Shown: positions 2,236 through 10,295 of the stretch, one piece after another | Layout: every line of letters starts with the position of its first letter | How positions within the stretch are numbered: position 1 is the stretch's first letter | Source: Pseudomonadota bacterium | GTDB taxonomy: Bacteria; Pseudomonadota; Gammaproteobacteria; Burkholderiales; Burkholderiaceae_D | Assembly (NCBI GenBank): GCA_040384645.1 | Contig: JAZKIX010000205.1 | Span: forward strand, 927-11,514 | Length of the DNA stretch: 10,588 nt | Direction of reading: 5' to 3' | The notes under the pieces: generated by a model | Seen by the model: only the letters and a program-made list of their open reading frames with translations | What the model was told of the DNA's origin: nothing | Database searches by the model: none | Position numbers and translations under genes: made by a program

Positions 2236-2270
2236 TTAAAAAAATGTCGGAACAGCCTGCTTACTGTTCC
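2236..2270 (-). terminator. Putative rho-independent terminator for the SPFH gene (hairpin GGAACAG-N8-CTGTTCC overlapping the stop codon, then T-run on the minus strand)
   Basis: A 7-bp perfect inverted repeat at 2249-2255 / 2264-2270 has an 8-nt loop that contains the TAA stop (2261-2263). On the minus strand it is followed, after GAC, by a TTTTTTT run (plus A-run 2237-2243). On the plus strand the same hairpin is preceded by the A-run, so bidirectional function toward the convergent lysR-family gene is possible. Confidence 0.35.
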
Positions 2271-3802
2271 AAATCATCGCGCAATTTGAACGGCACCAGT
2301 TGTTTAAGCAGTCCTTCTAGTCCGCCATAAACATTCAAATGCTCGATCTTCTCGGTGATTTTTTCCAGCGTCTCTAGTTCCTTTAGCCGCAACGCCACCG
2401 GATTGTCTTCCATCACCTTGGCAGTATTCATCAGCGAGCGCGTGGCTGCCGTTTCTTCGCGGCGGCGAATCACATTGGCTTGGGCCGCTTTTTCTGCTTC
2501 CACTACCTTTCCTAATATAGTTTTTATTTCGCCAGGCAAGATCAAATCCTTGATGCCGAGGCTAATCATCTCAATCCCTTGCAACGCTGCTTTTTGCTTC
2601 ATATAACCGAGAATTTGTTCATCGGTTTCATTTTTATTTTCGAGCAAGCCATCCAAGGTCCGGCTACCGATTGCTGCGCGTAAAGCGAATTGAATTTCTT
2701 TATAAATGAAGTCCTTATAGTCGGAGAGACTAGACAGCGTCAGACGGCTATCGACTATTTTGTAACCCGCCGTCACGTTGACGCGAAGCTGTACTTTGTC
2801 TTGCGTCAGCATTTCCTGTCCCGTTATTTCTACCACCATCAGCCGCGTGTCGACTGTCGTCAACGAGAGGCGCTTACCGCCATGCCAATATAGATAAAAA
2901 CCCGGCTCCAACATGGATTGAAATACACCATCAACATAAAACAAGCCGACGTGCTCAGAAGGAATTTCATAACTCGAGACAAAAGGCGCCAGCAATTTTT
3001 CTGTGGCCTGAGTACTACGCATGGCGACGACGATATGGGTTTCGACCGGCTTTGGCGCTTGGTCGAGTGCGATCAATTCTGCCCGCAAATCTTTGCTGGC
3101 CAAAAGCTGGCCAGCCGCAGCCGACACCTGTATCAACTCTTTTTTATCCCACCACACGGCCAACTGTTTATCACCGGTTTCGACGCAACTGAGCTGCTCT
3201 GTCAGTGCCGGATGATTGCTGGTCAGGATGGCTTGCACGACATCCTTTGCCTCGATCACCTGCGATTGGCGCAGAATGATGAGCTTGGTTTTTGGCAGTA
3301 CGTCGAAGTAGGCATGACGTCCCGGCGACAGAAAATCGCTGAAAATTTCTTCTACAAATAGCAAACCAAAGGCACCAGCGGGAACTACTATCTGTTTGAC
3401 GCAACCGACCGAGACCCCCACAGCTAATTTGGCCAACCATTCCGCTGGCACTTTTAGGTCTGCACTGACGACAGTTCGATATATTTCTAGCGGTAGATCT
3501 TTTTTCCAAAACGCCTGTAAGGAATTGGGTAAAACAAAATGGCGCTGTTGGCCTGCGCAGACTAGTGCCACCTGATCAATTCCGGTACGGATGATTTCCA
3601 GATGCGCGCTTATCTCGGCAGAATGCGCCGACACCAACCATTCCAGATTGGCGACATTAGCGGGGAAATCGGCCAGATTACATACCTGAACCGTCTTGGA
3701 CGAAGGCAAGATATAGCGACCGCTTTCGAGTATTTTTTCAAAGCCGGTACGGGTATGGACCAAGCCAACTTGGCGGTCTTGAATGAGGTGCCGTTTGAGC
3801 AT
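2261..3802 (-). CDS. SPFH / band-7 (stomatin-prohibitin-flotillin-HflK/C) domain protein with an N-terminal extension of about 270 aa, 513 aa total
   Basis: The C-terminal half has the SPFH pattern: HVGLFYVDGVFQSMLEPGFYLYW ... TVDTRLMVVEITGQEMLTQDKVQLRVNVTAGYKIVD ... ISLGIKDLILPGEIKTILGKVVEAEKAAQANVIRRREETAA. It is followed by a coiled-coil-like acidic tail, as in slipins. The N-terminal segment QVGLVHTRTGFEKILESGRYILP weakly repeats the same opening motif, so a degenerate second SPFH-like repeat is possible. The ATG at 3802 has an AGGA SD 7 nt upstream. GC content is visibly lower than in flanking genes. Confidence 0.8.
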   Translation of the reverse strand: MLKRHLIQDRQVGLVHTRTGFEKILESGRYILPSSKTVQVCNLADFPANVANLEWLVSAHSAEISAHLEIIRTGIDQVALVCAGQQRHFVLPNSLQAFWKKDLPLEIYRTVVSADLKVPAEWLAKLAVGVSVGCVKQIVVPAGAFGLLFVEEIFSDFLSPGRHAYFDVLPKTKLIILRQSQVIEAKDVVQAILTSNHPALTEQLSCVETGDKQLAVWWDKKELIQVSAAAGQLLASKDLRAELIALDQAPKPVETHIVVAMRSTQATEKLLAPFVSSYEIPSEHVGLFYVDGVFQSMLEPGFYLYWHGGKRLSLTTVDTRLMVVEITGQEMLTQDKVQLRVNVTAGYKIVDSRLTLSSLSDYKDFIYKEIQFALRAAIGSRTLDGLLENKNETDEQILGYMKQKAALQGIEMISLGIKDLILPGEIKTILGKVVEAEKAAQANVIRRREETAATRSLMNTAKVMEDNPVALRLKELETLEKITEKIEHLNVYGGLEGLLKQLVPFKLRDDLEQ

Positions 3803-4084
3803 TAGAATCCTGTTAAATACCCTCGCGGGAGCCTTCCCCGCATCACAACGGATGGCAGGATCGGATCGACGCGGCCGTTTCGTCCCGCATACGCTCGATA
3901 TCGAAGGCGCACCCTAAGCACAGGCCGTCCTTGGCTATCGTTAATACATTGGGTAAAAACACCGGGCCAAACCAAAAGAACAACCATACAAAGCCGTGAC
4001 GCGTTGTTTAAACCAATCGGGCTCGATCGATTGAGTCCGACTGCCAAAAACAGGAAATTGGCTCCCTTGAGGGATGCTGCATCG

Positions 4085-4240
4085 ATACAAATTATAGGAA
4101 TCGAACCTATTGCTACCGGGTGTTTAGGCCGATGCTCTACCAGAGTTTTCAAACGAGGTGCGTAGTTCAGGACTCGAACCTGAAAGTTGTCGATTGATGC
4201 GGTACACAAACGGGCAGAGCCCATTGCGCCAGCCTGAACT
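4085..4240 (-). other. Two tRNA T-arm-like hairpins with acceptor-like 3' tails, 73 nt apart, in a long non-coding gap; no complete cloverleaf (tRNA relics or structured element)
   Basis: On the minus strand the first hairpin reads ATAGG-TTCGATT-CCTAT (plus 4094-4110). The second reads TTCAGG-TTCGAGT-CCTGAA followed by ACTACGCACC (plus 4157-4184). Both loops match the tRNA T-loop GGTTCGAnTCC consensus. A TGGTAGAGCA D-loop-like segment lies between them. I could not pair acceptor stems (a 5' strand GCGTAGT or ACAAATT would be needed and is absent). The D arm is truncated. The best anticodon stem has a mismatch. I therefore call these fragments, not genes. Confidence 0.3.
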
Positions 4241-4529
4241 CAAGAGTCAGAACCGCTGCAGCCAATCAACGAAGCTTCCACCATGGAAACGCCGGGCAAG
4301 TATAGCGCAGGGCAATATCCAAAAGCCAATAAACCTTATGTTGTGGGCAGTGCTGGCTTGACGTCACTCACCCTGAATCCATAGAAGTCGGACGGGGCTT
4401 GCCCATCCCGCTGGTTTCTCATGCCAAGAAAATAAGTGCCGACACTTTCATGCAATTTGATTCAATTGATTGGGCCGGCAACCTTGAGCTAGCTGCTTCA
4501 GAACCTGGCGATCATTGCTGCTTTTTTGC

Positions 4530-5906
4530 TTAAAACTGTACGACACTCTCAAAAGTCGGGCCAAAAGCCCCGCAATAGACCGGCAAGTTCGCCATCGATT
4601 CCAGCCTTGCAAGGAAGGCTCGCGGTATCGTGATCAATCCTGCCTCATACCTTGGCTGCGCTTTGAAAAGAGACTGGGTCAATGCGGCTTGGTGGCCCAG
4701 ATCCCCCATTAGCCCATGGCGCAAGCCAGTCACTAAACCTGTCGTACTGTCGCGAACCAGCGTCGCATCTGTGGCATCGGTAGGCGCAATCTCATAACCC
4801 TGGCACCAGCGCAGTCCCGGCAAGCGATCGAATACATCGAGATGGCTGACCAGCAAGCCATCCAATTTTCCGGCGACCGCCATCGCATATCGCAATAAAA
4901 TCGCATCAGGATGGCCGCGTCGAAACTTGCCCTGCCAGCCGTCCGAACCGTTATGCGGTTCTGGCAGGCTGTCCAGGCTGGCATCCCATGTTGGCAAAGG
5001 GCCGCAACCGTGCCGTGTCAGGTAGGAGCGCAGAACGCCAAAATGTTGAACCATGGCGGTTTGTCCAGCGTCGGCCAAAACTGCTTCAACTGCTGATGGG
5101 TGGATGCTGCTCCAGGTGGTATGCGGATGAAAGCCGCGCCATTCGTCGAGCAAGATACCCTGTGCGCCCTCGAAAATAACTGTCCCCGGCAAGTGCAGAC
5201 GTTGCGCAATAAGCGGTTGCTGTGCAGGCACAACTTGAAGCGTCAATGCACCTACTCGCTCAAGCCAGCGTCGCGAGATTGAAGCGTCGTTTAATACCTG
5301 CCATTCTGTCGCAAAGGCTTGCTGCATTTGGACATGGCTGGGGGCTGGCGCAGCGATATTTTCCAGTTCGCGCAGCAATGTGGTGCGGATGACTTCAAGC
5401 TTATCCAGGGCAAGTATCGGATTTAACAAGTCGGCGTAGCGCAATATCTGCCCCGGATGATCTAGGCTGTGGCGCACCGTTTCGCCCACGCCGACGCCAC
5501 AAGTGCCGTGCGCACCCTGCCCGCGCGCCAATTCCCGCAACCGCCCGGCGGCCTGATGGAACGGTGTAGTGACACGGCAGCGCGCATCAATCATCAATCT
5601 CTGCAAGCCGTCAGCGACGCCGGCGCGCTGCAGAAATTCATTTTCAATCAAGAGTGCGGTGGGATGCACGACAACCGGATACGCCAGCAGCGTCACCACG
5701 TCAGGTACAAAAGTAGCCGCGCCGAACTGCGAAAACGTGTGATGACGCCCATCCGGCAACACGACATTGTGTCCAGCCTGGGCGCCGCCGTTAAAACGCA
5801 CCACGGTATGGGCTTGCCAATGACGGCACAGATAATCAGTAAACAGACCCTTGCCGCAATCGCCGAAAGCAAGCCCCAACAACGAGATAAACCGGGTCGA
5901 ATTCAT
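4530..5906 (-). CDS. Adenylosuccinate synthetase (PurA) family protein, divergent paralogue with non-canonical P-loop, about 458 aa from ATG at 5906
   Basis: Collinear matches to PurA motifs, with our sequence listed first and the PurA consensus in brackets. LLGLAFGDCGKG [QWGDEGKGK]. VRFNGGAQAGHNVV [RFQGGHNAGHTVV]. GTCGVGVGE [TGRGIGPAYEDK]. IFEGAQGILLDEWRGFHPHTTWS [[23 protein letters not shown]]. TTGLVTGLRHGLMGD [TTGRxRRxGWLD]. GKLD [KLD/SKLD]. VLRSYLTRHGCGPLPT [KAYTTRVGEGPFPTE]. The track start 5978 would overlap the upstream gene by 62 nt. The ATG at 5906 puts the P-loop at residues 15-20 as in PurA and leaves a 10-nt gap after the vWA gene stop (5917-5919). The stop TAA is at 4530-4532. 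Confidence 0.8.
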   Translation of the reverse strand: MNSTRFISLLGLAFGDCGKGLFTDYLCRHWQAHTVVRFNGGAQAGHNVVLPDGRHHTFSQFGAATFVPDVVTLLAYPVVVHPTALLIENEFLQRAGVADGLQRLMIDARCRVTTPFHQAAGRLRELARGQGAHGTCGVGVGETVRHSLDHPGQILRYADLLNPILALDKLEVIRTTLLRELENIAAPAPSHVQMQQAFATEWQVLNDASISRRWLERVGALTLQVVPAQQPLIAQRLHLPGTVIFEGAQGILLDEWRGFHPHTTWSSIHPSAVEAVLADAGQTAMVQHFGVLRSYLTRHGCGPLPTWDASLDSLPEPHNGSDGWQGKFRRGHPDAILLRYAMAVAGKLDGLLVSHLDVFDRLPGLRWCQGYEIAPTDATDATLVRDSTTGLVTGLRHGLMGDLGHQAALTQSLFKAQPRYEAGLITIPRAFLARLESMANLPVYCGAFGPTFESVVQF

Positions 5907-5916
5907 ATGCCGCCGA

Positions 5917-6894
5917 TCAGCCGAATAAACGACGCCACCAGGTCGATTGTCCTTGCCCCGTGGTCGCTGTACCGGCATGGATCCGGTTATTAGCGTTCGG
6001 ATCGATCAGCTCGGCATAAGGCTGCAATACGCGGATCACGGCCGAGGCACGTTCGCCGCTGACACCATTGCCCTGCAAGGTATGCGCCAAGGTTGCCAGG
6101 TCGGGGATGGCGCGCTCGGTCAGGCCGACGATGGATGCGGCGACCGCACAAGCATCCTCGGGCGATTCCATGCAAATCACATTGTCGCCAAGTAGGTCGC
6201 GCCAGCGCCGCTCGCATTTTTGACGCCGTTGCAAGTCGGGGATCAGGAAGAATAAATGATAGGTTTCGGCTGCTGCAGCGATCACTTCTTCGATCGGAAT
6301 ATCTTCGTCGAGCTTTTCACCGATTAAAGCCTCGATCTGATGCCGCGATACTGCCGGATACGGCAGTTCATCGCCGGTCATGAACAGGTAACCGCGCTTT
6401 TTACGCTTTTCCCAACATTCCAGATCGGTGTGCTGGGCTAGCATGTAAAAGGCCAGCTCATAACTTTCTGAACCCGTGCCACCACCGCCGCCTTCCAGAA
6501 AACTCCAGGTCAACCATTGATCCATCAGCTCGGCTGTCGATTCAAATTGCCCCACCTGGAGCGGTGCATTGTCCGACGTGGCATCGCCGATAGCCATGAA
6601 CAGCAACTGCGGATCAGGGATGCCGCAGGCGGTCAACAGCTTCATAAAAGTCGGCAATTCTTGGGTCGCTAATATTTTGGGGATATCGCCCATCGAACCG
6701 GTTACATCGAGCGCAAAAACAATCCCAAGCGACGCCGGATGATCGGCGCTATCGCGCGATTCACGCATCTTCACGCCGCGTGGATCCATCAGTGGATGAC
6801 ATCGATGTTGGGTAAATACCTCGCCATAGGATGCAGAAGAACGGTCGGCGATGAGGGCAGCATGTGCGGCGTGCGAGTAATTTCCGTGTCCCAT
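5917..6894 (-). CDS. von Willebrand factor type A (vWA) domain protein, TerY-like, about 325 aa from ATG at 6894
   Basis: MIDAS motif IVFALDVTGSMGD (DxTGS). Downstream GDATSD and FMTGDE loops are consistent with the MIDAS Thr and Asp positions. A GGGGG linker is present. The track start 7098 would overlap the upstream gene. The ATG at 6894 (MGHGNYSH...) is preceded by AAGGAA, which sits directly after the upstream TAA stop (6905-6907), a 10-nt gap suggesting translational coupling. Confidence 0.75.
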   Translation of the reverse strand: MGHGNYSHAAHAALIADRSSASYGEVFTQHRCHPLMDPRGVKMRESRDSADHPASLGIVFALDVTGSMGDIPKILATQELPTFMKLLTACGIPDPQLLFMAIGDATSDNAPLQVGQFESTAELMDQWLTWSFLEGGGGGTGSESYELAFYMLAQHTDLECWEKRKKRGYLFMTGDELPYPAVSRHQIEALIGEKLDEDIPIEEVIAAAAETYHLFFLIPDLQRRQKCERRWRDLLGDNVICMESPEDACAVAASIVGLTERAIPDLATLAHTLQGNGVSGERASAVIRVLQPYAELIDPNANNRIHAGTATTGQGQSTWWRRLFG

Positions 6895-6904
6895 ATGGTT
6901 CCTT

Positions 6905-7897
6905 TTAGATGGTGGAGTGCGGGTTAAAGTGGATGAATCGGGATGGGCCGAAGGCACTACGGGCAGCGACTGCCAGCGCTTGATCAAGTCCTCGTGCGCC
7001 CAGTCTGGTGCACCATTGCCGGTCTTCGCTGGCGTTTTTGAGCAAAGCTTCCAATGCTGCCGGGGTTGACAGTGACAGCGATGGCTCGGCATCGCCATCG
7101 GCCAGCATAACGCGCATGGCCCAGGCCGATTGCATCAGGTCACGCACCATTGCGGGATGCAAGATTCCTGCAGTTGCAGGTGTCTGCACCTGCTGCGCAC
7201 CAGCCCAGCCGATCAGCAAAATGCCATGGTCTTTCGGATGCACCAACATATGCTCGGGCGACAGATTGCCATGCACCCATCCGGCGTCGTGCAGATACGC
7301 CAGCACTTCCAATACCCGGCGCCACATCCACACCACATGGCGCGGATCTAGTCCCAGCGGCTGCAACTGTTTTACATTCGCCAGGCTGCCCCAGAAGCCC
7401 GCCGGATGGCGCAGGACCAAAGCATCCCTGCTCTCGCCTGCCACACTTTCAGTCACGCCGCAAGCCACAGGCTGCGGCAAACGTTGCGAAAAATAAGCGG
7501 CGCCGGGTGCTGCAATTGCCTGTAGCTGTTGCAGCACAGCCATTTCTTTTTTCAGCCGCCCGGCAAGCGCCGATTGGTTTGCCAGTTTCAAAACGACACG
7601 CTCGGTCAATGCGCCCACCCGTTCTGCCAGCATGACTTTGGCAGACGTCCCAAAGCCCAAAGGCAGAAGAGTTTTGTAGTGTTGGCCCTGGCAGCGAATC
7701 AGGTTCGACGCAACGCCCGGCACCGGCTGGGTGCGCAGAAACGCTTGATGAAATGGCGCTGCTTCGACAAAATTTTCAGCGCGTGAAACCGAAATGCCGC
7801 AATACGTACATATCACGCTGCGCCAGCGGGCCTGCCTGGGCAAGGGCCCGCCGCACTGAGGGCAAATGAGCGACGCTGAAAACATGGGCTGTGTCAT
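6905..7897 (-). CDS. Zinc-ribbon + protein-kinase-like domain protein; catalytic-loop and DFG-equivalent acidic residues appear substituted (predicted pseudokinase or atypical kinase), about 330 aa from ATG at 7897
   Basis: N-terminal CPQCGG-X16-CTYCG zinc ribbon. Gly-rich loop LGFGTSAKV. VVLK (beta3 Lys). LKKEMAVL (alphaC Glu). The catalytic-loop position reads HGNLSPEH (compare HRDLKPEN, or HGDxxxxN of APH/choline-kinase-like kinases), i.e. Asn in place of the catalytic Asp. The DFG/IDWE position reads LIGWAGA, so Asp and Glu are absent. The track start 7969 is GTG and its extension would translate through the 21-bp palindrome. The ATG at 7897 (MTQPMFSAS...) has an AAGG SD. The alignment is by eye; exact residue equivalences are uncertain. 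Confidence 0.65.
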   Translation of the reverse strand: MTQPMFSASLICPQCGGPLPRQARWRSVICTYCGISVSRAENFVEAAPFHQAFLRTQPVPGVASNLIRCQGQHYKTLLPLGFGTSAKVMLAERVGALTERVVLKLANQSALAGRLKKEMAVLQQLQAIAAPGAAYFSQRLPQPVACGVTESVAGESRDALVLRHPAGFWGSLANVKQLQPLGLDPRHVVWMWRRVLEVLAYLHDAGWVHGNLSPEHMLVHPKDHGILLIGWAGAQQVQTPATAGILHPAMVRDLMQSAWAMRVMLADGDAEPSLSLSTPAALEALLKNASEDRQWCTRLGARGLDQALAVAARSAFGPSRFIHFNPHSTI

Positions 7898-7930
7898 TCG
7901 GATCGCCTTGCTTGAAAAAAATGGGAGAAA

Positions 7931-7951
7931 GTGCAAATCATAGGTTTGCAC
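7931..7951. promoter_or_regulatory. Perfect-arm 21-bp palindrome GTGCAAA-tcatagg-TTTGCAC immediately upstream of the operon (candidate operator and/or attenuator hairpin with downstream T-run)
   Basis: 7-bp arms, 7-nt spacer, 46-34 nt upstream of the ATG at 7897. On the minus strand it reads GTGCAAACCTATGATTTGCAC TTTCTCCCATTTTTTT (stem-loop then interrupted U-tract). Its size matches operators of dimeric wHTH regulators. The stop codon of a small upstream ORF lies in its loop. Confidence 0.4.
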
Positions 7952-8027
7952 CCAGCGCAAGGTCGGCACCCACGCCAGATACGCTAGCTTGGCTTATGCA
8001 ACGATCAATTTTTGCCACGATAGTCAT
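7938..8027 (-). CDS. Small ORF, 29 codons (MTIVAKIDRCISQASVSGVGADLALGANL), with strong SD; possible leader peptide or small protein
   Basis: The minus strand reads TTTTCGAGGAAATAAT ATG ACT ATC GTG ... AAC CTA TGA. A GAGGAAA SD lies 6 nt before the ATG at 8027. The TGA stop (7938-7940) lies inside the loop of the 21-bp palindrome, which is followed by the T-run and then the kinase-like gene. It is below the ORF-track length cutoff. I verified it by reverse-complementing 7938-8027. Confidence 0.3.
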   Translation of the reverse strand: MTIVAKIDRCISQASVSGVGADLALGANL

Positions 8028-8124: not shown

Positions 8125-8832
8125 TCAAAGACCGCGCTCCAATACGCGTAATTTTTCCCGGAATTGCGACTTTAGCCGATACAGCTGGGCCGGTCGATGT
8201 GCGCCGCCGCCTTCCATCTGGCCGTCAGCCGGCTCCAACATACCCATCTCCGTCATCTTGCGGCGAAAACTGACCTTGTTGATGCGCTGATCCATCACCG
8301 CCTCATACACTTTTTGCAGTTGTGGCAGCGTAAACGGTTCGCTGACAAGGTAGCAGGGCAAGGACGAATATTGGCTTTTGCTACGCAGGCGCGCTGCCGC
8401 AGTATCGATAATTTTGTTGTGATCGAAAGGCAAAGTCGGCAAGCGCCCGATACTGACAAGTTTTAGCGCAGGATGATTCGCCTGCAGAATGACTTGATAA
8501 GGAACTAGCGCATAGTAAGACACCGATACAGACCAGCCACGAGGATCGCGTGCCGGACCGGAAAAAGTAGCCAGTTGTTCAAGATAGGGCGCAATGATTG
8601 CTGTTTTCTCAAAAAGCACACGTAAAGCAGCCTCATGCGCATCGCCGTCTTCTTCCACATGGATATAACCGCCCGGTAGCGCTGCCACACCCTTGTATGG
8701 CTCGCGATCGCGCTTTAGCAAAGCCACGTTAAGCTGTTCATCCTTTAGCGTCAGCAAAACCACGTCGACGGTACAAATCACCTGATTCAAAGCATCCCCT
8801 GTTTGTTTCTTCTCCTGAGACGAAAAATACAC
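8125..8832 (-). CDS. nrtR: Nudix-related transcriptional regulator NrtR (N-terminal degenerate Nudix ADP-ribose-binding domain + C-terminal winged-helix), regulator of NAD salvage
   Basis: The Nudix-box region GGYIHVEEDGDAHEAALRVLFEKTAI has substitutions at the catalytic glutamates (RV for RE, EK for EE), as is common in non-catalytic NrtR Nudix domains. The C-terminal FTLPQLQKVYEAVMDQRINKVSFRRKMTEMGMLEPADGQMEGGGAHRPAQLYRL matches the NrtR wHTH signature (...NFRRK....G.L......GGAHRPA.LYRF). The genomic context (divergent from pncA, near pncB) is the canonical NrtR regulon. The track start 8832 is GTG with no clear SD. An in-frame TTG 15 codons downstream (preceded by CAGGGGA) is an alternative start. 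Confidence 0.85.
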   Translation of the reverse strand: MYFSSQEKKQTGDALNQVICTVDVVLLTLKDEQLNVALLKRDREPYKGVAALPGGYIHVEEDGDAHEAALRVLFEKTAIIAPYLEQLATFSGPARDPRGWSVSVSYYALVPYQVILQANHPALKLVSIGRLPTLPFDHNKIIDTAAARLRSKSQYSSLPCYLVSEPFTLPQLQKVYEAVMDQRINKVSFRRKMTEMGMLEPADGQMEGGGAHRPAQLYRLKSQFREKLRVLERGL

Positions 8833-8892
8833 TTAATTGCAAAACTATTCCAACTAAAAATGAGAATTTTCTTAAAATATTGATTAATTAAG

Positions 8893-8909
8893 ACATATAT
8901 TTTATATGT
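8893..8909. promoter_or_regulatory. 17-bp palindrome ACATATA-TTT-TATATGT in the nrtR-pncA divergent intergenic region (candidate operator)
   Basis: 7-bp perfect arms, 3-nt centre, located between the divergent nrtR and pncA-like starts where an NrtR or other regulator site would be expected. The background is AT-rich, so chance occurrence is not negligible. Confidence 0.25.
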
Positions 8910-8987
8910 AGAAATCGCATTCACTAGTTAGTTGCAAAATTATTTAAATACCCTATACTCGATTCATACCTTTCCCAAGGAAATATC

Positions 8988-9857
8988 ATGAAGCGCAAGC
9001 TGCACCTGTTGATCATCGATCCGCAAAACGATTTCTGCGATTTACCCGACCATTATCTACCGGCCAACCCGCTCGACGGCACGCCGATTAAACCAGCCTT
9101 ACCAGTGACCGGCGCCCATGCCGACATGCTGCGGGTGGCAAACCTGATCAATCGCGGACATGGCGGACTGTCTGGCATCAGCATCACGCTTGATTCGCAT
9201 CACCGGCTGGACGTGGCACATCCGACGTTTTGGATGGATGCACACCGACAAGCTGTCCCGCCATTTACCCAGATCAGCGCGGCACAGCTGCGGGCTGGTC
9301 AATATTTGCCACGCGATGCCACAGCCCTGCCGCGCGTAACCGCCTACCTTGATGCACTGGAGGTAGCCGGACGCTACACCCTGATGGTGTGGCCAGTGCA
9401 TTGCGAAATCGGCACCTGGGGTCATAACGTGCATGCAGACGTGCGCGCTGCCTATAACCATTGGGAAGAATCGGCGCTGGATACTGTCAACAAAGTGGTC
9501 AAAGGCACCAATCCCTGGACCGAACATTATTCGGCCGTGATGGCGGAAGTACCCGATGCGGAGGATCCGGCGACCCAATTGAACCGCACATTTTTAAGCA
9601 CCTTGGCGCAGGCAGACCGGATCTACGTTACCGGCGAAGCCGGCAGCCACTGTGTAAAGGCGACGACGGAACACATTGCGGACAATTTTGATCAAGTCAA
9701 TTTAGCGAAGCTGGTCCTGGTAAGCGATTGCATGAGTGCCGTCACAGGTTTCGAAAAACAAACCGATGATTTTTTGCGCGATATGGCGGCGCGTGGCCTG
9801 ACCATCGCTAAGGCGGAAGATGTACTGCAGGAATTAATGGCGAACAATGATTCCTGA
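8988..9857 (+). CDS. pncA: Nicotinamidase / pyrazinamidase PncA-like cysteine hydrolase (isochorismatase superfamily), long form, 289 aa
   Basis: Collinear with PncA catalytic and metal motifs, ours first and PncA in brackets. LLIIDPQNDFC [ALIIVDVQNDFC], the Asp of the triad. LPVTGAHADMLRVANLI [LAVTGGAALARAISDYL]. TLDSHHRLDVAHP [ATKDFHIDPGDH], metal-binding His cluster. MVWPVHCEIGTWG [SSWPPHCVSGTPG]. NKVVKGTNP, Lys of the triad. VTGEAGSHCV [VVGIATDHCV], catalytic Cys. Strong RBS AAGGAAAT before the ATG at 8988. It is about 80-100 aa longer than minimal PncA (insertions). Confidence 0.8.
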   Translation: MKRKLHLLIIDPQNDFCDLPDHYLPANPLDGTPIKPALPVTGAHADMLRVANLINRGHGGLSGISITLDSHHRLDVAHPTFWMDAHRQAVPPFTQISAAQLRAGQYLPRDATALPRVTAYLDALEVAGRYTLMVWPVHCEIGTWGHNVHADVRAAYNHWEESALDTVNKVVKGTNPWTEHYSAVMAEVPDAEDPATQLNRTFLSTLAQADRIYVTGEAGSHCVKATTEHIADNFDQVNLAKLVLVSDCMSAVTGFEKQTDDFLRDMAARGLTIAKAEDVLQELMANNDS

Positions 9858-9920: not shown

Positions 9921-10295
9921 ATGACTACAGTATCAAACGAAATAATCACACTTTATCGTCCGACGGGGCCCGAAGAGCTGGCACTGGTAAGGGAAAGTGG
10001 CTTTAAAAAATGGCCTCCGCGACTTGCTGAACAACCTATTTTTTATCCTGTCACCAACGAACTGTATGCAATTCAGATCGCAAGAGACTGGAACGTCAAG
10101 GCGAGCGGCGCGGGTTTTGTGACGCGTTTTTACGTAAAAAAATCATTCATGGATCGCTATCCAATACAAAAAGTCGGCGGTGCAATCCATACCGAATGGT
10201 GGATTCCAGCCGAAGAACTAGATGAAATGAATCGTAATATCGTAGGTGATATTGAAGTAATCCAAGAATTTGGAAGATCGGACAGCAATGTGTGA
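9921..10295 (+). CDS. Hypothetical protein, 124 aa, markedly lower GC than neighbours; no recognisable motifs
   Basis: Clean ORF with ATG at 9921 and an AGGA about 13 nt upstream. It sits between pncA-like and pncB, so it is probably co-transcribed with the NAD salvage genes. Composition (about 40-45% GC by eye) differs from the flanks. I do not recognise the family (sequence contains YRPTGPEELALVRESGF ... EWWIPAEELDEM). Confidence 0.55.
   Translation: MTTVSNEIITLYRPTGPEELALVRESGFKKWPPRLAEQPIFYPVTNELYAIQIARDWNVKASGAGFVTRFYVKKSFMDRYPIQKVGGAIHTEWWIPAEELDEMNRNIVGDIEVIQEFGRSDSNV

Follow-up and report, generated by a model that had tools for sequence, protein, structure and literature searches.

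The window analysed here, a stretch of 10,588 nucleotides from a Pseudomonadota bacterium (contig JAZKIX010000205.1, positions 927 to 11,514), carries a compact module of three minus-strand genes, which encode a zinc (Zn)-ribbon protein with a protein-kinase fold, a protein with a von Willebrand factor A (vWA) fold and a metal ion-dependent adhesion site (MIDAS), and a divergent relative of adenylosuccinate synthetase (PurA) (Table 1). Databases label the three products a serine/threonine kinase, a VWA domain-containing protein and an adenylosuccinate synthetase respectively. The genes are separated by spacers of 10 nucleotides each and AAGGAA stands directly 3' of the stop codon of the kinase-like gene, as an earlier sequence-only reading of this DNA had correctly described; its view that the genes are packed in the manner of an operon was also borne out, and tight spacing recurs in relatives of the module. 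Among these relatives the gap from the kinase-like to the vWA gene has a median of 31 nucleotides and that from the vWA to the PurA-like gene a median of 9, with a 4-nucleotide overlap in 13 loci; the close coupling of the vWA and PurA-like genes is the conserved feature, the exact 10 nucleotides are not. Longer open reading frames (ORFs) with starts at 7969, 7098 and 5978 were rejected as upstream extensions, which would overlap the neighbouring gene.

Table 1. Features of the module and its surroundings, in positions of the window
Feature	Position	Strand	Description
Kinase-like Zn-ribbon gene	7897 (ATG) to 6905 (TAA 6907-6905)	minus	330 amino acids, N-terminus MTQPMF
Kinase-like/vWA junction	6895-6904	minus	AAGGAACCAT; 10 nucleotides, Shine-Dalgarno-like AAGGA right behind the stop
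vWA/MIDAS gene	6894 (ATG) to 5917 (TGA 5919-5917)	minus	325 amino acids, N-terminus MGHGNYSH
vWA/PurA-like junction	5907-5916	minus	TCGGCGGCAT; 10 nucleotides
PurA-like ligase gene (putative)	5906 (ATG) to 4530 (end of TAA)	minus	458 amino acids, N-terminus MNSTRFISLLGLAFGDCGKG
Palindrome GTGCAAA-N7-TTTGCAC with T7 run	7931-7951		34 nucleotides upstream of the kinase-like start codon
nrtR	8125-8832	minus	Nudix and NrtR winged helix; 228 nucleotides upstream of the module, same strand
Isochorismatase/nicotinamidase-like gene	8988-9857	plus	289 amino acids, divergent from nrtR
140-amino acid ORF	3802-4224	minus	between the PurA-like and SPFH genes
SPFH/Band7 gene	2261-3802	minus	513 amino acids, about 700 nucleotides downstream of the module

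The PurA-like protein and its two partners

The PurA-like protein matches PF00709 (E 8e-56), but it scored far below the cutoffs of the PurA equivalog models (150.1 against 402 for NF002223 and 122.5 against 395.55 for TIGR00184); with the PurZ model NF038379 it reached 30.3 against a cutoff of 300, and PHROG 1211 (phrog_1211) groups it with PurZ-like phage enzymes. Housekeeping purA genes are expected beside hflX/hflK/hflC or hisZ, and none of these adjoins the gene in the window, the neighbours being nrtR and the vWA, kinase-like and SPFH genes. The sequence-only reading had also taken the gene to be distinct from housekeeping purA, and the protein is indeed a divergent PurA, neither the housekeeping enzyme nor PurZ.

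Residues were mapped by alignment to E. coli PurA and counted over 156 module-linked PurA-like homologues. The P-loop reads GDCGKGL in the window, and the equivalents of the catalytic and GTP-binding set of E. coli (the catalytic D13, K16, H41 and Q224, together with R305 and the guanine-specifying D333) are retained in 144-155 of the 156, with Asp at the D13 position in 152. PurA-type chemistry is probably retained, because the P-loop, the catalytic residues and the Asp333 equivalent are all kept. Substitutions in the window protein are N38 to Q, T129 to C, R131 to V, R143 to H, T300-T301 to W-Q, R303 to K and K331 to H. Three of these positions (Asn38, Thr129 and, from the partner subunit, Arg143) bind the 5'-phosphate of inosine monophosphate (IMP) in PurA, and among the homologues the first is Gln in 153, the second is Cys in 138 and Val in 15, and the third is variable. 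In the E. coli enzyme Thr300-Thr301-x-Arg303 are the aspartate ligands; the equivalent of Thr300 is aromatic (W/Y/F) in 134 homologues, that of Thr301 is Gln in 150 and there is no conserved Arg at the third position, so that the loop Thr300-Thr301-Gly-Arg303 reads W-Q-G-K in the window and [WYF]-Q-G-x across the clade. This pattern points to an active enzyme with an altered amine substrate and an altered grip on the nucleotide, and the clade is distinct and under purifying selection. Two members of this superfamily, PurA and PurZ, have to our knowledge been characterised, the latter of which revealed a new DNA base; the PurA-like proteins form a third, large and sharply distinguished clade with a near-obligate vWA partner, in a module whose parts all have known folds.

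That partner, the product of the second gene, has a vWA fold, as the sequence-only reading had proposed, and it matched no VWA or TerY model in Pfam or NCBIfam; when PDB sequences were searched with its family profile, nothing but designed helical proteins came up, which we regard as noise. The MIDAS motif (D-x-S/T-x-S with the distal Thr/Ser and Asp) is complete, its residues D63-V-T65-G-S67, E143/S144 and D175 vary little or not at all in the family, and metal binding is predicted. Of 133 bacterial and phage homologues, 132 begin, at the initiator Met, with M-G-x-[GS]-x-[YW]-S (residues 1-7 in the window, positions 6894-6874), which is unusual conservation for the N-terminus of any protein family, and the stretch RESRDSxxHP (residues 44-53) and an LEGGGGG loop are also nearly invariant. 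Residues 304-325 form a disordered C-terminal tail; about one third of the full-length representatives end in -RL behind such a tail, and the last residue is hydrophobic in most. Of the trio, the vWA protein shows the highest conservation, with 72-81% identity among the top matches compared to 56-67% for the PurA-like protein. Long vWA-like proteins were considered as possible fusions and rejected, P0316 being a frameshifted read-through and P0360 intein-bearing. Some Myxococcota have two copies of the vWA gene (L069, L070, L072 and L074 from Myxococcus/Corallococcus, and L075, L084 and L085 from Polyangiaceae), arranged in one group as kinase-like, vWA, PurA-like, vWA2 and in the second group as kinase-like, vWA, vWA, PurA-like.

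The kinase-like protein opens with a CPQC...CTYC ribbon, and a four-Cys ribbon is present in 79 of 84 bacterial relatives. Alone it gave weak Kdo, APH and Pkinase matches in Pfam, while a profile of its family matched CK2alpha (E 2e-13) with the Gly loop, Lys, Glu and catalytic loop aligned, which upholds the kinase fold assigned to it by the sequence-only reading. The VAIK Lys (K104) is kept in 93% of relatives and the alphaC Glu (E118) in 88%. In the window, HRD is replaced by HGN, the catalytic-loop Asn by His216 and DFG by GWA (the Asp position being Gly230), and not one of 119 relatives retains the two catalytic Asp residues together, so the loss of catalytic Asp first noticed in this one protein extends to its family. 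The protein is thus predicted to be a pseudokinase, which can probably still bind nucleotide. Among the models of PADLOC-DB v2.0.0 (2023) it matched only the kinase domains of defence proteins, weakly and partially (including the PglW, PD-T4-6 and MADS kinases), and the vWA and PurA-like proteins had no match of any kind.

Conservation of the module in bacteria and phages

Genomes, one per species, were scanned with a 10-sequence alignment of the vWA family as query, which yielded at least 584 species-level matches, and synteny was counted in the best 79 of these loci. In 73 of the 79 the kinase-like, vWA and PurA-like genes follow one another in this order and on the same strand, and at least six phyla are represented (the loci span Burkholderiales, Lysobacteraceae, Myxococcota, Chloroflexota, Verrucomicrobiota, Planctomycetota and Acidobacteriota); four of the remaining six end at a contig edge and two (L059 and L076) truly lack the PurA-like gene. 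The trio is also found near the right end of about 200 genomes of Mycobacterium cluster C phages, where it is annotated as a kinase, a hypothetical protein and a PurA-like adenylosuccinate synthetase, and the partners are conserved together far more widely than could be told from one sequence. Flanking genes differ completely between the bacterial loci, and clustering of neighbouring ORFs found no fourth conserved family in the 79 genome loci or in 83 viral loci; the module is a self-contained cassette. It is widespread in bacterial chromosomes outside prophages, none of the four bacterial neighbourhoods annotated with Pfam is a defence island, and one locus adjoins a toxin-antitoxin pair, a transposase and an integrase. 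Searches with Rfam and for inverted repeats and plasmids gave nothing informative on regulation or mobility.

In IMG/VR a vWA relative is encoded on 401 contigs, the best 80 of which were used for the viral counts. The vWA and PurA-like genes are paired in 75 of these 80 (43 with the pair only, 30 with the kinase-like gene upstream and 3 with it downstream, less one reference phage), whereas the kinase-like gene is present in 34 and almost always lacks the Zn ribbon. Immediately upstream of the vWA gene in 38 kinase-less viral loci is a gene for a helical protein of about 120 amino acids (for example L137, 6630-7001; family consensus GAFxSSLKRNNKQIRDDRA...MLDLSP...YLFGG), and the kinase gives way to a Met-rich protein of 240-260 amino acids in phages of Vibrio and Rhizobium (L005, 5216-5935; L006, 4774-5568); the latter proteins were tried as kinase homologues and rejected, being homologous to each other instead, and neither family matched Pfam or PHROG. 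The sequence-only reading had treated the kinase-like protein as a core part of the module, a view that has to be revised, as the invariant core consists of the vWA and PurA-like proteins and the third partner is exchangeable. This exchangeability, together with its dead catalytic residues, fits an accessory or regulatory role for the third component.

The phages that carry the pair are large and mostly of myovirus type, and the pair sits among genes for single-stranded DNA-binding protein (SSB), UvsX-like protein, ribonucleotide reductase (RNR) and exonuclease. Hint-type inteins break the vWA gene near the MIDAS Asp175 in ET08 gp248 and in P0360, and in about 20 other cluster C phages the vWA match ends at residue 169; the PurA-like gene of one phage locus is split by a LAGLIDADG intein just past the His41 motif (L107, 7913-10321). 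ET08 gp248 has been described as a protein of unknown function that is predicted to be essential (PMC3029335). In 10 viral loci a Ro60/TROVE-like "RNA-binding protein" (phrog_850) of about 500 amino acids, which has a vWA/MIDAS motif of its own, is encoded a few kb from the module (for example L096, 10346-11869, and L005, 10353-11861), and on a groundwater contig a diversity-generating retroelement (bAvd and reverse transcriptase) lies 2 kb downstream of it (L167, 6544-7933).

NAD-salvage neighbours and candidate regulation

In the window the module lies behind nrtR, which is divergent from a nicotinamidase-like gene whose product scored below the Pfam isochorismatase cutoff (22.5 against 27). 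The same nrtR/pncA-like pair adjoins in L009, L012 and L016 (a Rhodocyclaceae metagenome-assembled genome and two Accumulibacter genomes), where beside nrtR the pncA-like, pncB, nadE, nadM (NMNAT and Nudix), kinase-like, vWA and PurA-like genes form one co-directional array, the module being the tail of an operon for the salvage of nicotinamide adenine dinucleotide (NAD). In Massilia the array is nrtR, Band7, kinase-like, vWA and PurA-like. Two jumbo-phage contigs, L090 and L094, carry genes for NrtR (Nudix and winged helix), NAMPT, the vWA protein and a Zn-ribbon Nudix protein in that order, with the PurA-like and kinase-like genes a few kb beyond the Nudix gene; their vWA protein is only about 43% identical to that of the window. 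The Nudix protein encoded directly after the vWA gene in these contigs (L090, 8002-8532; L094, 7850-8071) has an N-terminal CxxC...CxxC ribbon and, by our own reading of its sequence, seems to resemble NudC. Genes for NMNAT/Nudix, PncB, NAMPT or NADAR proteins are also found within 7 kb of the module in L005, L006, L100, L103 and L150. A small nucleotidyltransferase in L167 was considered as an NMNAT and dropped as NAD evidence, its N-terminal motif being CoaD-like.

Adjacency of the module to nrtR or NAD-salvage genes is thus seen in three separate lineages, with cases in the window, in L010, L011 and L166, in L009, L012 and L016, and in L090 and L094. A genome typically holds at most one nrtR, and because of this three independent adjacencies of this kind would be unlikely by chance, as a rough inference that was not computed. 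The recurrence of the arrangement in Rhodocyclaceae NAD-salvage operons and in jumbo-phage contigs lends meaning to the position behind nrtR that had been pointed out in the sequence-only reading, and we regard the link between module and NAD metabolism as a strong lead and not as a result.

Sequence elements at the locus give a less clear picture. A small ORF, the palindrome and the T-run upstream of the kinase-like gene had been taken together as signs of dedicated regulation, which was not substantiated: the ORF of 29 codons (8027-7938) exists without further support, and the 6-bp core of the palindrome (TGCAAA-N7-TTTGCA), expected 0.06 times per window and present in 12 of 200 shuffles, is weakly above chance at most. 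A promoter and terminator scan gave none exceeding the shuffle expectation, and no terminator could be recognised in the minus strand behind the PurA-like stop (4225-4529). The divergent region between nrtR and the pncA-like gene (8833-8987) is AT-rich, the block 8501-9000 having 42.6% GC, and contains the palindrome ACATATAAAATATATGT and two copies of TTGCAAA(A), while L012 and L016 have GTTGCA...TGCAAC-like elements at the equivalent position. These elements may be NrtR boxes, and nrtR is a candidate regulator of the module.

Genes for SPFH/Band7 proteins recur beside the module, in the window, in L166 (7033-8010), L010/L011 (about 4900-6015), L029 (9449-10582) and L059 (26-928); three Massilia genomes have a 325-amino acid Band_7_1 protein encoded between nrtR and the kinase-like gene, and SPFH genes are also near the module in a Lysobacteraceae locus and a Deltaproteobacteria locus. 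The SPFH protein of the window was considered as HflK and rejected, with 30 bits against a cutoff of 159. The 140-amino acid ORF upstream of its gene had no match in Pfam or PADLOC and no relatives in the loci retrieved, and may be spurious; an ORF of 124 amino acids after the nicotinamidase-like gene (9921-10295, plus strand) had no match in Pfam, NCBIfam or PADLOC.

Proposed role, rival explanations and comparison with known systems

Setting side by side the three folds, the residue pattern, the synteny across phyla and phages and the recurrent association with NAD salvage, we tentatively propose that the PurA-like protein is a non-canonical purine C6 ligase that depends on guanosine triphosphate (GTP), needs the vWA protein as partner and is tied to adenylate/NAD homeostasis, a reading which we consider the best supported, if somewhat short of an even chance. 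The ligase would phosphorylate the C6 oxygen of a 6-oxopurine nucleotide with GTP, and an amine would then displace the phosphate; this amine would not be L-aspartate, and contacts to the 5'-phosphate and at the dimer interface would differ from those of PurA. The vWA protein would be a required partner, whose MIDAS metal site and invariant N-terminus may serve to complete or feed the active site; this is suggested by the loss of Arg143 from the enzyme, by the near-obligate pairing of the genes and by the higher conservation of the vWA protein. The pseudokinase, or whichever protein substitutes for it, may bind or sense nucleotide and gate or scaffold the pair. The role would be one in adenine-nucleotide or NAD homeostasis, in this lineage under the control of NrtR and ADP-ribose, and not in abortive-infection defence, and large phages would carry the vWA and PurA-like core as an auxiliary function of nucleotide metabolism. 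The broader idea of the sequence-only reading, that a vWA/pseudokinase partner controls or serves a PurA-like ligase making a modified nucleotide, is plausible.

A further and more novel reading, which we think improbable, is that the vWA protein itself supplies the amine, in the alpha-amino group of its N-terminal Gly2 exposed after removal of Met; protein and nucleotide would then be joined covalently through N6 (about +330 Da for IMP). Such an acceptor would explain the invariant M-G-x-G-x-Y-S start of the vWA protein, the aromatic residue and Gln that replace two carboxylate-binding residues of the aspartate pocket, and both the near inseparability of the two genes and the higher conservation of the vWA protein over the enzyme.

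Several observations weigh against the proposed C6 ligase with a role in NAD homeostasis. NAD-related neighbours were found in only 14 of 165 loci and most loci, including about 25 from Variovorax, are without them; phage NAD genes often stand among nucleotide-metabolism genes anyway, so their co-location with the module may mislead. No motif is common to the upstream region of the module and the nrtR-proximal regions of related loci. The two loci with kinase-like and vWA genes and no PurA-like gene do not fit an obligate pair, and the residues that replace the aspartate ligands could still bind aspartate in a different way. Enzyme activity, the use of GTP, the identity of nucleotide and amine, complex formation and regulation by NrtR are all matters that we infer.

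One rival, which we consider unlikely, sees in the PurA-like protein just a second, ordinary adenylosuccinate synthetase (acting on IMP, Asp and GTP) that boosts AMP, with the vWA and kinase-like proteins merely regulating it or being loosely linked to it. Its strong PF00709 match, the retained catalytic residues and guanine-specifying Asp and the database annotation all agree with this, and a supply of AMP would fit both the ATP-consuming salvage of NAD and phage DNA synthesis. However, across the 156 sequences T300-T301-x-R303 has become [WYF]-Q-x-non-Arg, the ligands of the IMP 5'-phosphate (N38, T129 and R143) are all altered and the scores lie far under every PurA equivalog cutoff; a second synthetase would also leave unexplained why its gene should be near-obligately paired with that of a vWA protein of higher conservation. 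An enzyme of the PurZ type, which would make a modified purine deoxynucleotide (2-aminoadenine or an N6-substituted adenine) for genome modification, is very improbable: the grouping in PHROG 1211, the abundance in large phages near replication genes and an altered amine pocket, which could yield an N6-substituted base, are in keeping with it, but the Asp13 to Ser hallmark is absent, the PurZ model gave about a tenth of its cutoff, and the module lacks datZ-, mazZ- or dpoZ-like neighbours and is widespread in bacterial chromosomes, outside prophages.

The sequence-only reading had favoured a signalling or conflict module reminiscent of TerY-P. Spelled out as an anti-phage system, the vWA/pseudokinase pair would sense infection or stress and switch on a PurA-like effector, which would drain IMP/GTP or produce a nucleotide that is toxic or acts as a signal, and abortive infection would follow. 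The pairing of vWA and kinase-fold proteins resembles TerY-P, the unrelated flanks suggest horizontal mobility of the cassette, one locus lies beside a toxin-antitoxin pair with transposase and integrase, and the kinase-like protein weakly matches defence kinases. Nevertheless this now seems rather unlikely, as the two core proteins have no PADLOC match, neither PP2C nor a conserved fourth gene accompanies them and the kinase is catalytically degenerate across its family. The core pair is, moreover, common in large phages among SSB, UvsX and RNR genes, in company with genes of DNA and nucleotide metabolism, and elsewhere the module lies inside NAD-salvage operons or in annotated bacterial neighbourhoods other than defence islands. 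The phage inteins further suggest that the core is needed by the phage itself (PMC3029335).

The clade keeps its catalytic machinery without the aspartate site and is almost always encoded with the vWA protein; it is found in at least 584 species of bacteria, on 401 viral contigs and in about 200 mycobacteriophages that have been sequenced. Its recurrent placement with NrtR and NAD salvage, and in NAD clusters of phages, suggests an unknown step in the metabolism of adenine nucleotides or NAD, which could be relevant to the way in which phages withstand immunity that depletes nucleotides or NAD. A categorically new system is possible if the chemistry is true to the hint of the residue pattern, and as all three proteins are small and the predictions specific, the hypothesis is directly testable. 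A literature search found no description of this gene combination or clade, within a partial coverage that makes a description elsewhere possible, and a 2026 survey sorted 481 phage PF00709 proteins into PurA and PurZ groups, with a remainder left undescribed.

In its defining features the module differs from canonical PurA, PurZ, the TerY-P triad and every system in PADLOC. With PurA (EC 6.3.4.4) the PurA-like protein shares the fold and PF00709, the P-loop GDxGKG and the catalytic and Asp333 equivalents, but it scores far below the equivalog cutoffs, its TTGRRR loop reads [WYF]QGxFR, N38 has become Q, T129 has become C and R143 is lost, and its gene is near-obligately paired with a vWA gene outside the hflKC/hisZ context. 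PurZ/PurZ0 of the 2-aminoadenine pathway in Z-genome phages is likewise a phage-borne PurA paralogue with a retuned pocket and shares phrog_1211; its hallmark is the change of Asp13 to Ser (PMC12884076; bioRxiv 10.1101/2025.10.22.683976). PurZ still uses aspartate, however, and has no vWA partner, whereas the PurA-like clade keeps Asp13, has lost the aspartate ligands and lacks the DatZ/MazZ/DpoZ cluster, neither the window nor any annotated phage locus having a datZ-, mazZ- or dpoZ-like gene. The TerY-P triad (vWA TerY, Ser/Thr kinase and PP2C, as in E. coli yegI/yegK/yegL) resembles the module in its compact vWA and kinase-fold operon and in having a Zn ribbon with a vWA partner, and the sequence-only reading saw in the module such a triad with the phosphatase slot taken over by the PurA-like enzyme. 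This view was not sustained: no PP2C gene was found in the window or in the 79 genome loci, no family member has a full kinase catalytic set, the third gene is PurA-like, the vWA protein matches no Pfam VWA/TerY model and phages can dispense with the kinase. To ArnA/ArnB and the Sec23/24 core, in which a Zn ribbon packs on a vWA domain, the likeness is at fold level only, the biology (archaellum regulation and COPII) being unrelated. The phage NAD+ reconstitution pathways NARP1 and NARP2 differ in that no module protein belongs to their enzyme families and the association of the module with NAD genes is found in a minority of loci, but both are phage auxiliary genes that keep company with NAMPT and NMNAT/Nudix, and on the two jumbo-phage contigs the vWA gene stands between those for NAMPT and Nudix.

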